From NCBI GenBank assembly GCA_963717145.1, contig OY970325.1:1696001-1760000 (forward strand): a DNA stretch of 64,000 nucleotides, read 5' to 3'. The position numbers were made by a program, and so were the translations under genes. The DNA comes from an uncultured Armatimonadetes bacterium. GTDB taxonomy: Bacteria > Armatimonadota > UBA5829 > DTJY01. The notes under the pieces are model-generated. The model was given only the letters and a program-made list of their open reading frames with translations, was not told where the DNA came from and did no database searches. This document shows positions 2,313-5,736 of the stretch, one piece after another (the stretch's first letter is position 1; every line of letters starts with the position of its first letter).

Positions 2313-3059
2313 ATGCCCGCCGGCCGAAATCCCAACCGCACATCCGGTTTCACCATCATCGAATTGCTGGTGGTCATCGCCGTTATTGCCATACTGTCAG
2401 GCATTCTGCTCCCAATATTCCTCTCTGCCAAGGAATCTGTCCGTAACTCGCAATGCCAGGCGAACCTCAAGCAACTCTACGTCGCATTCGAGCTGTATGC
2501 CGACAATTGGAATGGCGTCTGGCCTGGCCCCGGCGGATACAAGGGCGACAACTGCTACTGGGCACAGGAGAGCGGAGGGGGCGTGGATGCGTACCTCAAG
2601 AACCAGGAGAAGGGCGGAGAGAGCGTCTTCTGCTGCCCATGCTACACAGGCGTATATGCCTCGCCATGGTCGCCACGGACCTATGGCATGAACTCGTTCC
2701 TGCGGACGATGCGGAAAACTTATTCTTACCCACAGTATCTGAAGTTCCCGGGGATCAGAGAGACTAGCATCCTGTACCCAGGCCGCACGATCCTGCTCTA
2801 TGAAGGCATGCCCGAGGATAAGACGAATACCAACGGCGAGGGATATGTGTATCGCTGCGGTGACTGGACACTGGTGCGAGGATATACCAAGTATAAGCAC
2901 TACCAGAAGTCAGATAGGCCCTGGCATCGCGGGCGGAACAACTACCTCTTCTGTGATGGACACATCGAATCACGTGTGCCGGAGGAATCTGGCGCCGAGT
3001 TGACCTCGCCGGACAATGACCTTTGGACCGTTCGTAAGGACAGATACCCTATGAGGTAA
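2313..3059 (+). CDS. Prepilin-type N-terminal cleavage/methylation protein with H-X9-DG motif (DUF1559-like)
   Basis: [25 protein letters not shown] and [23 protein letters not shown]. Confidence 0.9.
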
Positions 3060-3067
3060 GCGGGCCG

Positions 3068-3547
3068 CTACATTCCGGCCACTCGGTCGAGAACGTCCTG
3101 CAGCTTCTGCCTGATCGCGGCCGCCAGGTCATACAGTTCCGAGCCGTCCACGAGCCTGAACTGCTCGATGGGATCGACCGCTGCGACCGCGGTACCCTCG
3201 GCTCGCTCGAAAACAACGACGTTGTGCGGCATCACAAGCCCTGCATCCATGTCGGCCATCAGCGCCTGCCGAGCGTAGGTCGGATGCCAGGCCTCGAGTA
3301 TGACGTACCTTGGAAACTGAACACTCGGATCGGCACGGAGTGCCTCGGCGACGTCGATCTCGCCCGCAATGTCGAACCCCTCGGCGTCAAGCGCCCGTCG
3401 GACCGCGCCCAGCGTCTCATCGAAGGGGGTGTCCATCCACATCTTGGTGCCGAACACCGACTCCTCGGGGGTGCATATGCTTGGTCCCTCTGCGACCTCG
3501 GTTATTCCAGATTCGCACTGCTCATCCACGGTGTGATCCTCCTGCAC
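3068..3547 (-). CDS. DUF302 domain protein
   Basis: Pattern FDETLGAVRRALDAEGF...IDV...AGLVMPHNVVV...AAVDP. Confidence 0.8.
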   Translation of the reverse strand: MQEDHTVDEQCESGITEVAEGPSICTPEESVFGTKMWMDTPFDETLGAVRRALDAEGFDIAGEIDVAEALRADPSVQFPRYVILEAWHPTYARQALMADMDAGLVMPHNVVVFERAEGTAVAAVDPIEQFRLVDGSELYDLAAAIRQKLQDVLDRVAGM

Positions 3548-3559
3548 GTTTATATCGGG

Positions 3560-3586
3560 TTACCCTGAGGCCGAGGAGTTCAAACC
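3560..3586 (-). promoter_or_regulatory. Possible sigmaB/sigmaF-type promoter for the DUF302 gene
   Basis: Minus strand GGTTTGA-N14-GGGTAA. Confidence 0.35.
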
Positions 3587-3623
3587 GCGACTCCGGGTCA
3601 CCTCACCGACGGCGGCGACGATC

Positions 3624-4007
3624 CTACTCGAGATCTATCACCAGTTCGGGCAGTGAGCAGAGAGTCGCGTGGATGAGGCAACTGCCGGCAACCTTCTTGA
3701 CCGCCTGCCGACGGTTCTCGGGGATGCCCTTCGGCACTTTGACTTTGGCATGCAGGCGCCCGATCCGCATGGGGTCCTTCACGATATCCGAGGCGACATC
3801 GACCGTCATCCCCTCGCAGTCGATCCCGGCCTGTTCGCAGTACGCGGTCACGTACACGCCGATGCACGTCCCGAGCGAGGCCGCAAGAAGCTCGGGGGGC
3901 GTCATTGCCGTATCAGTGCCGCCCTTCTCAGGTGGCAGATCGGTCGTGATCTTGTGTCCGCGTGTCTCGGCGGTGAACTTGGTCCCGCCTTCGTAGGAAA
4001 TCTTCAT
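3624..4007 (-). CDS. OsmC family protein
   Basis: TDLPPEKGG...TPPELLAASLGTC, second Cys in CLIHATL. Confidence 0.9.
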   Translation of the reverse strand: MKISYEGGTKFTAETRGHKITTDLPPEKGGTDTAMTPPELLAASLGTCIGVYVTAYCEQAGIDCEGMTVDVASDIVKDPMRIGRLHAKVKVPKGIPENRRQAVKKVAGSCLIHATLCSLPELVIDLE

Positions 4008-4024
4008 GTGTGTCCTCCCTTTTC

Positions 4025-4134
4025 TGGAGTGCGGAAGCGGAGTCTCCTAGATCCTGAATCAAGTTCAGGATGACAACGGGCGCTGTCATCCTGAACTTGA
4101 TTCAGGATCTAGGAGACTCCGCTTCCGCACTCCA
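4025..4134. repeat. Composite perfect palindrome: TGGAGTGCGGAAGC arms enclosing GTCATCCTGAACTTGATTCAGGATCT units
   Basis: Perfect 51-bp arms (4025-4075 and 4084-4134) with an 8-bp spacer. Confidence 0.9.
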
Positions 4135-4136
4135 TA

Positions 4137-4301
4137 TCAACCGGCCCGATCCAGGGCCAGCAGCAATCCGATGACGGCGCCGATTACGACGCTGACATAC
4201 GGATTGCAGACGAGCTTTCACCCGCCGCCCATCGATCGGCTGAGAAGGCTGAGCAGATAGCCCAACGCTCCGCCGATGACGATTCCCATTGCCATTTTCA
4301 T
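4137..4301 (-). CDS. Small two-helix membrane protein (DUF6132-like) with in-frame UGA, candidate selenoprotein
   Basis: MKMAMGIVIGGALGYLLSLLSRSMGGG*KLVCNPYVSVVIGAVIGLLLALDRAG. GGAG RBS, UGA at 4218-4220, second TM helix continues in frame. Confidence 0.7.
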
Positions 4302-4351
4302 ATACTCACTCCGTAAGAAAGCCGATGACCACCGGCTCATTGTCGGGGCTT

Positions 4352-4534
4352 TCACCCGCTTGGCTTGCATCCGGCTTCGATGTACGCGCGAAGGGCTGCA
4401 AACGTCGACATCAGCCTATTTGTCTCCTTCGACCCGCATTTCGGACACTCCTTCACGTCCTTCGATTCGCTCAGCGGTTCCAGAATCGAGAACTTGTGTC
4501 CGCAGCTACTGCATTTGAACTCATGTATGGGCAT
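4352..4534 (-). CDS. FmdB family zinc-ribbon protein; terminal UGA may be Sec (extension to 4337)
   Basis: MPIHEFKCSSCG...ECPKCGS...RLMSTFA. Ends GCKPSG-UGA followed by a hairpin. Confidence 0.85.
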   Translation of the reverse strand: MPIHEFKCSSCGHKFSILEPLSESKDVKECPKCGSKETNRLMSTFAALRAYIEAGCKPSG

Positions 4535-4549
4535 GTGATTCACCTCTTG

Positions 4550-4810
4550 TCATGCAAGCTTGAGGAAGAGCTTCATCGCATCTTCCAGGGATTCTTCTTT
4601 ACCCGCTTTCTGTTCGAGGCATTCCGCCATGTGGCGGCTCAACATGAGAAAGCCAACTCGGTCGAGCGCGCCCCTGACGGCGGAGACCTGAGTGATGATC
4701 TCGGTGCAGTCGGACTGATCCTCGACCATCCGCTGGAGGCCGCGCACCTGCCCCTCGATCCTCCGCAGCCTGTTCAGAAGCTCCCGACACGTCTCGGATC
4801 TATCCTGCAT
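4550..4810 (-). CDS. csoR: CsoR/RcnR family metal- or sulfur-sensing repressor
   Basis: LLNRLRRIEGQVRGLQRMVE, with C...HMAEC ligand fingerprint. Confidence 0.85.
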   Translation of the reverse strand: MQDRSETCRELLNRLRRIEGQVRGLQRMVEDQSDCTEIITQVSAVRGALDRVGFLMLSRHMAECLEQKAGKEESLEDAMKLFLKLA

Positions 4811-4830
4811 CGTGTCACCTCGCAACGATT

Positions 4831-4846
4831 ATACCCCTGGGGGTAT
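4831..4846. promoter_or_regulatory. CsoR-type operator
   Basis: ATACCCC-TG-GGGGTAT 7-2-7 palindrome with C/G tracts, between the promoter and the csoR start. Confidence 0.8.
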
Positions 4847-4856
4847 CCTTGGAAAC

Positions 4857-4885
4857 ATTGTACTCGAGCATAGCCCGCCTGTCAA
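4857..4885 (-). promoter_or_regulatory. sigma70 promoter of the csoR operon
   Basis: TTGACA-N17-TACAAT. Confidence 0.75.
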
Positions 4886-4925
4886 GGGTTTTGTGATGCA
4901 ATCCAGGGGTCAGAGCGCCCGAACA

Positions 4926-5195
4926 TCACAATGCAGTGGCCAATCGTTCGTGGAGTTGTTCGTCAGTAAGGCCGTCGATCTCGAAGGTCTTCTGGCGGCT
5001 GGTATGGCCTGAGACCAGAGTGATCTGCGACTTCTTGATGCCGAGTTGGTCCGCGAGGAACTCGATGGCGGCCTTGTTCGCGGCGCCCTCGACCGGCGGC
5101 GCGGTGAGCTTGATACTCAGCACGCCGTCCTCCCACCCGGTGATCTGGCTGCGGGAACTGCGCGGGTTGATTCGGACTCGGAGCAGGGTCTTCAT
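4926..5195 (-). CDS. DUF167/YggU family protein
   Basis: TAPPVEGAANKA and SGHTSRQK motifs. Confidence 0.9.
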   Translation of the reverse strand: MKTLLRVRINPRSSRSQITGWEDGVLSIKLTAPPVEGAANKAAIEFLADQLGIKKSQITLVSGHTSRQKTFEIDGLTDEQLHERLATAL

Positions 5196-5214
5196 AGCAT
5201 GTGACAGGACCAGA

Positions 5215-5311
5215 TCGGGAGGGCGAGGCTCCGTCCGAGCCGGATGCTTCGGCAGCAGAACGAAGTGCCGCTACCGAAGCATCCGGCTCGGACGGAGCCT
5301 CGCCCTCCCGA
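5215..5311. repeat. REPIN-like palindrome (CGGGAGGGCGAGGCTCCGTCCGAGCC family)
   Basis: 38-bp inverted arms. Second copy at 40837. Confidence 0.9.
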
Positions 5312-5316
5312 CCTGA

Positions 5317-5682
5317 TCACCTCTTCACCATCCTCTGATAGATGTCTTCCCAGCCCTCACCCTCGGGCCGGGGCTCGAAGTCTTCGAACTTGTCGCCGCG
5401 CAGGTGGAGAGTGCCTCGCTGACCCGTGCGCGAGGAGGCGTAGATCGCCTCGACGACCTCGAATTCCTGCTGGCGGCCATCGTACTCGATGGTCAGATAG
5501 TAACGGCCGCCCTGAGGGCTCTCATCTTTTCGCCGGTCCATGATTCCGGCCTGGATCTCCCGGAGCTTCTGGAGACGGTTGGCCTTCCATTCTCGATAGC
5601 CCCGCTGCCAGACGAGCGCGACCATTATCCACATCAGGATCGCATATATCGCGAGGGCAATACCTATTGTCAGGGGGCTCAT
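5317..5682 (-). CDS. Membrane-anchored DUF2500-like protein
   Basis: N-terminal TM helix, then YYLTIEY...EFEV...Y...GQRGTL...G..FEDF. Confidence 0.6.
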   Translation of the reverse strand: MSPLTIGIALAIYAILMWIMVALVWQRGYREWKANRLQKLREIQAGIMDRRKDESPQGGRYYLTIEYDGRQQEFEVVEAIYASSRTGQRGTLHLRGDKFEDFEPRPEGEGWEDIYQRMVKR

Positions 5683-5736
5683 AACTCTATTCTCGCAGAA
5701 AAAAGGTCGGCACGGAGGCGCGGCCACTGCATGTGA

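Follow-up and report, generated by a model that had tools for sequence, protein, structure and literature searches.

A probable new selenoprotein of the small membrane protein family DUF6132, with a UGA codon in place of the invariant cysteine

The Pfam family DUF6132 (PF19628) comprises small proteins, of unknown function, that have two helices and a loop of the form G-x-C-P-[LI]-T-x-N-P. Among membrane redox systems, CcdA and DsbD are transmembrane thiol-disulfide relays of six or more helices, and the eukaryotic selenoproteins SELENOK and SELENOS, which have a redox role, are tiny and anchored in the membrane. For prokaryotes, a review of May 2026 lists 119 selenoprotein families or subfamilies in its Table 1 (PMC13188914), FmdB (UxxU), OsmC-like (UxxT), DUF1858 and YeeE/YedE among them; neither DUF6132 nor any small membrane protein with a UxxxC motif appears there. 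These four listed families also turn up as gene neighbours, in the window or in Bacteroidota, the window being the whole 64,000-nucleotide stretch of DNA that was analysed. In the main texts of the literature that we searched, 'DUF6132' occurs only in an unrelated context and 'PF19628' is absent; supplementary tables may use another name. Within the scope of these main texts, Table 1 of the review, passages of the deep-Sep paper (PMC12013277) and NCBIfam release 20.0, the gene described below would stand for a selenoprotein family that is genuine and new but of a familiar type, with Sec substituted for a redox Cys.

The gene lies on the minus strand, where it starts with an ATG at 4301-4299, contains an in-frame TGA at 4220-4218 (codon 28) and stops with a TGA at 4139-4137, the frame being MKMAMGIVIGGALGYLLSLLSRSMGGG-UGA(4220-4218)-KLVCNPYVSVVIGAVIGLLLALDRAG-UGA(4139-4137). 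The original prediction of a 54-codon gene with an in-frame UGA at 4137-4301 was correct in coordinates and residues, with the minus strand as the coding one, and the GGAG ribosome-binding site that it named is indeed seen at 4312-4309 of that strand; GGAG-like purine runs are also found upstream of most orthologues. Read on the plus strand, 4137-4301 yields a meaningless translation. The gene had also been said to be missing from the ORF track, and in fact no full-length frame exists under translation table 11; the ORF list holds only a 50-residue frame, 4218-4370, that terminates at the codon-28 TGA. Gene callers stop at TGA, and the lack of a full-length frame in the ORF list is what one would also expect of a nonsense pseudogene or an assembly error, that is, of a former Cys-form DUF6132 gene now ending at codon 28. 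The features of the locus are collected in Table 1.

Table 1. Features of the DUF6132 selenoprotein locus in the window, in the order of the minus strand
Feature	Position	Strand	Evidence
Sigma-70-like promoter match TTGACA-17-TACAAT, 11/12, upstream of repressor gene	4857..4885	minus	Consensus scan only
CsoR/RcnR-family metal-sensitive repressor, first gene of the apparent operon	4550..4825	minus	Pfam PF02583, 98.4 bits
FmdB-family zinc ribbon, Cys form (CxxC...CxxC)	4352..4543	minus	Zn_ribbon_8, 56.4 bits; TIGR02605, 61.4 bits
Ribosome-binding site GGAG, 7 nt ahead of ATG	4309..4312	minus	Direct sequence reading
Putative DUF6132 selenoprotein CDS, 54 residues	4137..4301	minus	Translation and Pfam match
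In-frame UGA, codon 28, predicted to be read as selenocysteine; invariant Cys column of the family	4218..4220	minus	Homologue alignment
SECIS-like hairpin, begins 10 nt past UGA	4163..4207	minus	Fold, orthologue consensus, covariation
Palindromic repeat, nested, 115 nt, between selenoprotein stop and OsmC gene	4023..4137	.	Sequence
OsmC-like protein, Cys form	3624..4007	minus	Pfam OsmC, 58.6 bits
DUF302 protein, next downstream gene	3068..3547	minus	Pfam DUF302, 51.8 bits

With C written for U, the read-through product matches the Pfam DUF6132 model at 26.2 bits (cut-off 23.2) over residues 1-50, and the match therefore spans the stop at codon 28. The resemblance to DUF6132, which the original prediction had proposed, is thus backed by a score above the family cut-off; in a six-frame search of the genome that reads through the stop, the score against the same model is 20.6 bits. 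We built a profile from 13 orthologues and searched 1.84 billion protein representatives with it at E <= 0.001, which returned 139 proteins. In the column of the Sec residue these carry C in 131 cases, W in three, R in one, G in one and a gap in three, the gapped rows being two stubs of 27 and 28 residues that end just ahead of the column and one spurious hit. No columns other than G10 and the Sec column are invariant in an alignment of 86 sequences. At the partner position (Cys32 in the window protein) the library members have C (63), S (37), A (22) or G (8), and in 67 of them a second Cys precedes the invariant one by five residues. A search of a protein atlas with a natural Cys-form representative found DUF6132 clusters only. 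With the read-through protein, a word-based index of called proteins gave 13 candidates, none of them scored, which has no bearing on the existence of relatives since such an index depends on gene calls; in genome contigs the single protein gave 600 pattern matches, of which none was confirmed.

Alignments and structural model agree on the hallmarks of DUF6132 membership, namely two hydrophobic glycine-rich helices around a loop with the invariant Cys and an N-P. According to AlphaFold2, run on the 86-sequence alignment, the protein would form a helix of residues 2-23, a loop of residues 24-33 (MGGGUKLVCN) and a second helix of residues 34-53; with a pLDDT of 69.1, confidence in this two-helix model of the 54-residue protein is only moderate. 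The loop motif between the helices, GGG-U-KLV-C-NP, contains Sec28 and its partner Cys32. The protein has no Pfam match to the thioredoxin family and is modelled as two helices, without a thioredoxin fold. In NCBIfam release 20.0 there is no relevant model for it at E <= 1, and at E <= 0.01 nothing was matched by two Cys forms or by six Sec forms taken from other subfamilies.

The local motif varies with the lineage. UxxxC-N-P is found in the class of the window's genome and in several other families, and the other lineages show CxxxxU-P-M-T-S-N-P, S-G-U-I-S-C-x-x-P-A-V-P or CxxU-G-I-T-x-S-P-V-G. The S-G-U-I-S-C and CxxU-G-I-T subfamilies (families f13 and f32) had no Pfam DUF6132 match at E <= 0.01 in any of the four members tested. 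They match the orthologue profile only, at E values of 1e-4 to 1e-6, and their membership is therefore weaker, so that we call them DUF6132-like.

Could the UGA be a mere nonsense mutation? A six-frame, stop-reading search of related genomes detected the gene in 14 of 61, in 12 of them with one TGA and in two without. When the orthologue profile was run against genomes of the same phylum, 68 of 401 had a match, with exactly one TGA in 57 and none in 11. All 68 genes were extracted: each of the 57 TGAs falls in the invariant Cys column, each of the 11 stop-free genes carries Cys in that column, and no match contains an internal TAA or TAG. The UGA had been predicted to sit at a conserved Cys position, and this is what TGA in 57 genomes, together with Cys in 11 genomes and in 131 of 139 database representatives, indicates. 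As a control, 301 Bacteroidota genomes contained 72 DUF6132 matches in 66 genomes, and the number of internal stops was 0 of 72.

Conservation continues beyond the UGA. Compared to seven orthologues, the sequence differs in the same manner before and after codon 28, most often at third and least often at second codon positions. Of the 13 further genes found in the first search, nine stop at the position of the window gene's stop with TAA or TAG and two do so with TGA; of the remaining two, one stops a codon earlier (TAG) and one is truncated. As the orthologues mostly end at this position, the second TGA, 4139-4137, is taken to be a true stop. The original prediction had looked to homologues for Cys or a conserved TGA at codon 28 and for conservation beyond it, and the homologues have both, conservation running to the common stop position.

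The genome, a single contig of 5.37 Mb, encodes the complete set of Sec components. We found selA (567 bits) with a tRNA-Sec gene (70.6 bits) ~0.9 kb downstream of it, selB (383 bits) and selD (392.5 bits), the last with an in-frame TGA of its own within GGGUGCK; an FdhA-like gene has a TGA within CARTUHAP. A genome without selABC, in which the original prediction would have read the gene as a pseudogene, is thereby ruled out. The tRNA and Rfam scans of the window itself found none. Across the phylum, selA was found in 215 of 401 genomes. It is present in 54 of the 57 genomes with the TGA form, and the other three, drafts of 220, 120 and 280 contigs, contain selB above the cut-off; only one of the 11 Cys-form genomes has selA. 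This cross-tabulation was made by hand, and because related genomes are not independent no statistical test was applied to the association between selA and TGA.

These distributions weigh heavily against a pseudogene, in which neither the recurrence of the same TGA in so many genomes of many families, nor the conservation and third-position-biased substitution downstream, nor the tracking of TGA with selA or selB would be anticipated, and in which TAA or TAG should have been met at this codon or elsewhere in some match. Two contigs from the samples of two other studies also span the gene (4129-4600, ~94% identity to the window); nine listed differences fall inside it, eight of them at third codon positions, and none of the listed differences affects 4218-4220, which lends weak support from other samples. 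Two observations would suit a broken gene, the two library stubs of 27 and 28 residues and three of the 57 TGA copies (L037, L124 and L133) that diverge or stop shortly past the CNP motif and appear damaged downstream. These three may be decaying genes or assembly errors. For the window gene, we regard the chance of a pseudogene or assembly error as close to negligible.

The original prediction saw only a weak hairpin downstream of the UGA and was in doubt about a SECIS element. Our analysis speaks against both points: the 86-nt segment 4225-4140 has a folding energy of -47.8 kcal/mol (z = -5.28; none of 200 shuffles was as stable), and a strong hairpin that is conserved and covarying starts 10 nt after the UGA. 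Its lower stem is formed by 8 bp between GCAAUCCG and CGGAUUGC, and its apical stem is GCGUCG-UAAU-CGGCGC, with the apical loop at +34 to +37 from the UGA. A consensus fold of 11 orthologues keeps the 8-bp lower stem and a 4-bp upper stem. Pairing in these orthologues reaches 92.4% of cells (96.6% in the lower helix), where shuffles give 86.7% and slid registers 26.5-49.2%, and the covariation score of 0.300, compared to 0.180 in shuffles, was reached by none of 500 shuffles. The covarying pair connects the third bases of an Asn/Lys codon and a Gly codon (U-A 5, C-G 2, G-C 2, U-G 2). In the 35 sequences of the UxxxC subfamily, where 237 of 280 cells are paired as against 70-149 of 280 in slid registers, a second covarying pair connects the third positions of Pro and Ile/Leu codons (G-C 15, C-G 9).

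Stability in excess of that dictated by the codons was assessed by codon shuffling. The 57 Sec forms have a mean z of -1.91 (28 of them below -2), compared to -0.47 in nine Cys forms from this phylum and -0.66 in 26 Cys forms from Bacteroidota (four below -2), with a one-sided Mann-Whitney p of 0.0004 that is overstated since the genomes are related. The stem consists of codons for conserved residues, and in three of the four closest Cys-form genes the 8-bp lower stem still pairs at 7 of 8 positions; because Cys-form genes retain these pairs, part of the lower stem may be a codon constraint or a relic. The UAAU loop of the window hairpin lacks a GGUC-type motif and differs in this from the GGUC-type loop of the FdhA-like gene. 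By our reading of the folds, all 18 sequences of the divergent f13 and f32 subfamilies have a short GC-rich hairpin ~15 nt past the UGA, with a 3-nt loop beginning with G; these hairpins resemble the GGUCU-loop hairpin behind the FdhA-like UGA in the window's genome. No Rfam family matches the window hairpin, a permissive scan of 4120-4240 giving chance-level miRNA and snoRNA matches only.

A strong, conserved hairpin downstream could also be viewed as an RNA element in its own right. The UGA would then be a true stop, the product would be a single-helix peptide of 27 residues, and the conservation behind it would belong to the RNA element or to a separate peptide; small single-helix peptides do exist. 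Against this, the downstream half can be aligned position for position to Cys-form proteins made as a single chain, the Pfam match covers both halves, the substitutions in the downstream half are of the coding type, and the first in-frame start in that half comes no earlier than codon 46. We therefore judge a short peptide to be very unlikely.

It is also hard to reconcile the data with a UGA that is read through without selenocysteine, for example through a near-cognate tRNA for Trp or Cys or through a local change of the code, and we rate this as extremely improbable. The W found in the Sec column of three library proteins, which may stem from a TGA called as Trp or from a real TGG, is the observation in its favour. 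On the other hand, TGA normally serves as a stop codon in this genome: of the 29 long ORFs without overlap in the window it ends 22, and it ends the selenoprotein gene as well. Moreover, the TGA form occurs almost exclusively together with selA or selB and the Cys forms where selA was not found, and the hairpin lies at SECIS distance.

On the strength of these sequence comparisons, we estimate the probability that the window gene is a functional selenoprotein gene with its UGA decoded as Sec at about 0.9. The UGA at 4220-4218 would be decoded by SelB and tRNA-Sec under the guidance of the hairpin 10 nt downstream, which is located inside the sequence for the second helix. The gene is predicted to yield a DUF6132 membrane protein of 54 residues, folded as a helical hairpin, with Sec28 taking the place of the invariant Cys in the inter-helix loop. 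A redox-active selenenylsulfide is probably formed between Sec28 and Cys32, a pair that would trade electrons with thioredoxin, and in this genome the protein probably serves a stress-responsive operon with a CsoR-type repressor, FmdB, an OsmC peroxidase-like protein and DUF302. The explanation as a whole, centred on Sec decoding, appears to us highly probable, its redox part less so.

The link to thioredoxin comes from fusions and gene neighbours. About 15 family members are long, and in six of the seven scanned the DUF6132 hairpin is followed by a Thioredoxin domain at the C-terminus. Of 28 loci in the phylum of the window's genome, 16 have a gene for a WC[GA]PC thioredoxin directly next to the homologue and in the same orientation; in 14 of them it precedes a Sec form and in two it follows a Cys form. 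Eleven of these 16 loci are from one genus and the rest from three other families, and they are not independent. Some of the neighbouring thioredoxins have lipoprotein-like or membrane-anchor leaders. The 110 neighbouring ORFs of 30 Cys-form genes in Bacteroidota include Thioredoxin (23), AhpC-TSA (13), Redoxin (11), Rhodanese (10), Glutaredoxin (5), DUF1858 (4), Sulf_transp (3), DUF302 (2) and GSHPx (2). Thioredoxin is thus the commonest neighbour of DUF6132 in two phyla. From fusions and neighbours together, we consider it reasonably likely that the protein constitutes a thioredoxin-linked selenol/thiol redox centre at the membrane.

In the window, the genes for the CsoR-type repressor, FmdB, the DUF6132 selenoprotein, OsmC and DUF302 follow one another on the same strand in an apparent operon; no thioredoxin gene is present among the window ORFs scanned, 3068 to 5727. 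The best NCBIfam models for the repressor (RicR, FrmR and RcnR) all score under their cut-offs. Among 13 related loci, an FmdB gene is located upstream in six, an OsmC gene downstream in four and a DUF302 gene downstream in two, and DUF302 also adjoins Cys-form DUF6132 in two Bacteroidota loci. The OsmC-like protein matches NF041052, OsmC-related (seleno)protein, weakly (31.1 bits, cut-off 95). The 115-nt repeat belongs to a dispersed family with 76 matches in the genome, both strands counted.

The repressor is also the starting point for the main alternative to a thioredoxin-linked role, in which the selenoprotein would bind a soft metal, Cu(I) or Hg(II), in the membrane instead of taking part in thioredoxin thiol-disulfide exchange. 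The apparent operon opens with a CsoR-family repressor whose Cys40, His65 and Cys69 are spaced like the residues that bind Cu(I) in CsoR. A C-x4-C-P motif is found in half of the wider family, PF02583 in two of 102 neighbouring ORFs of relatives, and several of the listed selenoprotein families are metal transporters or chaperones (PMC13188914, Table 1). On the other hand, the main neighbours in both phyla are thioredoxin, peroxiredoxin, rhodanese and glutaredoxin rather than metal pumps, and the recurrent fusion partner is thioredoxin. Persulfide sensors, too, belong to the CsoR family. We consider metal binding of the Cu(I) type unlikely and the thioredoxin-linked redox centre the better account of the protein.

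A bolder version of the redox role can be envisaged. The fusions put thioredoxin after helix 2, on the side opposite to the loop, and in the family alignment the loop carries Cys-Pro and Asn-Pro motifs. The side of the fusions, the leaders of the thioredoxins and these loop motifs make it possible, though possible only, that the protein is a minimal two-helix membrane relay, whose Sec/Cys pair, carried by a loop reaching into the bilayer, passes on reducing equivalents or bound S, Se or Cu(I) species. These would travel between a thioredoxin at one membrane surface and targets that lie either inside the bilayer or at the opposite surface. The protein would then be the functional counterpart of CcdA/DsbD in only 54 residues; throughout one phylum it would have been upgraded with Sec, and here it would be subject to a stress sensor of the CsoR type. 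We regard this relay as speculative and rather improbable.

If the thioredoxin-linked selenoprotein is confirmed, it would add a family to the known bacterial selenoproteins that standard annotation does not see, because gene callers stop at codon 27. The TGA form is frequent in one phylum, with 57 of 401 sampled genomes and about a quarter of the selA-bearing ones. In practice, selenoproteins would be under-counted in the genome annotations of this phylum and inventories should include PF19628. For DUF6132, a widespread family of unknown function, the findings would offer a first functional handle: since evolution swaps the invariant Cys for Sec, this Cys is, judged from sequence, a catalytic-type redox residue, and fusion and neighbourhood tie the family to thioredoxin in two phyla. 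The protein, being so small, could also serve as a tractable model of a selenol/thiol redox centre embedded in the membrane, and its gene as a case of a SECIS lying inside the coding sequence of a membrane helix.

How does the window protein compare to the systems already described? It shares with Pfam DUF6132 (PF19628) the length, the two glycine-rich hydrophobic helices and the loop with an invariant Cys column and N-P, and with the Cys forms of this family the thioredoxin and redox neighbour genes. It differs from the Cys forms in that the invariant Cys is encoded by UGA; furthermore, its partner Cys is located four residues downstream (UxxxC), and in many Cys forms it is located five residues upstream (CxxxxC).

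The UxxC/CxxU redox selenoproteins, such as Sec thioredoxin, glutaredoxin, peroxiredoxin, DsbA-like and AhpD-like proteins, offer a close parallel: Sec stands for a redox Cys near a partner Cys, Cys homologues are abundant, a SECIS-like hairpin directly follows the UGA and the context is centred on thioredoxin. In contrast to them, the window protein is predicted to be membrane-embedded, with two helices, 54 residues and UxxxC spacing. Membrane selenoproteins (MerT-like, YeeE/YedE, the SaoP permease and the SO_0444 Cu/Zn efflux transporter) likewise have Sec in or near membrane helices and a tie to sulfur or metal, and YeeE/YedE (Sulf_transp) is itself a neighbour of Cys-form DUF6132 in three of 110 Bacteroidota ORFs. 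The window protein has no Pfam or NCBIfam match to these proteins; it is much smaller than they are and no multi-pass transporter.

CcdA and DsbD resemble the window protein in a Cys pair beside prolines in or near membrane helices and in thioredoxin-like partners. The window protein differs from them in its two helices, Pfam and NCBIfam detected no homology, and electron transfer across the membrane would be conjecture. With SELENOK and SELENOS it is not known to share homology; unlike them it is bacterial and two-helical, with Sec in the loop between the helices rather than near the C-terminus and a putative in-frame bacterial SECIS. The putative DUF6132 selenoprotein is unusual in its size, in its membrane location and in a putative SECIS that lies within the coding sequence of a membrane helix.

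The genome that carries the DUF6132 selenoprotein gene has in-frame TGA codons in two further genes, one for selD, itself a selenoprotein, and one for an FdhA-like molybdopterin enzyme, the latter followed on its 3' side by a hairpin with a GGUCU loop (see the table). On the basis of these sequences we infer that this genome holds at least three selenocysteine (Sec) genes, with a predicted hairpin that differs in each.

Features of the window and other Sec genes of the same genome
Feature	Position	Strand	Detail
Prepilin-type N-terminal methylation motif, then start of DUF1559 (H-X9-DG-type protein)	2313-3059	+	
Nested palindrome, 115 nt	4023-4137		almost perfect; between selenoprotein stop codon and OsmC start
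CsoR/RcnR-family repressor	4550-4825	-	Cys40, His65, Cys69
Sigma-70-like promoter match	4857-4885	-	11/12; upstream of the repressor gene
selD, itself a selenoprotein gene (L010)	G000:C1:4140327-4141253		TGA in GGGUGCK
FdhA-like molybdopterin enzyme gene (L186)	3207160-3207945 (own genome)		TGA in CARTUHAP

The palindrome would form, on the mRNA, a predicted long hairpin immediately 3' of the selenoprotein stop codon. Further copies of its outer arms and of its inner core are present in the genome (76 matches, both strands counted), and the part at 4042-4113 has a very high summed depth of stacked contigs from other samples. The element resembles dispersed repeats of the REP or MITE kind.

Among the homologues, the Cys-form genes of family f19 (L120, L125, L126, L137 and L141) lie inside long open frames of 202-232 codons, and selA was not found in the genomes that hold them. 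About 14 nt 3' of their Cys codon there is a hairpin of the CGCCC-UGG-CGGGCG type, formed by the codons for CSPWRA, which may be due to chance or may be the relic of a SECIS element. Three library proteins of the DUF6132 alignment (P0006, P0013 and P0075) have Trp in the Sec column, and this residue could be a TGA that the gene caller rendered as Trp under another genetic code. The TGA-form homologues L037, L124 and L133 (genomes G025, G065 and G366, respectively) diverge or stop shortly past the CNP loop motif; these genes may be in decay, or their sequences may have been misassembled.

The thioredoxin genes L031, L032 and L038, located upstream of a homologue, encode an N-terminal leader that is lipoprotein-like or hydrophobic, whereas the neighbouring thioredoxins of genus g46 are without such a leader; the side of the membrane occupied by the partner thioredoxin may thus differ between lineages. 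Two related genomes have a copy of the DUF1559 gene, 67% identical, close to their DUF6132 homologue. Proteins of this prepilin-motif/DUF1559 type are characteristic of Planctomycetota, Verrucomicrobiota and Armatimonadota. The CsoR/RcnR-family repressor is encoded by the first gene of the row to which the selenoprotein gene belongs, and the spacing of its Cys, His and Cys residues is that of the Cu(I) ligands of CsoR.
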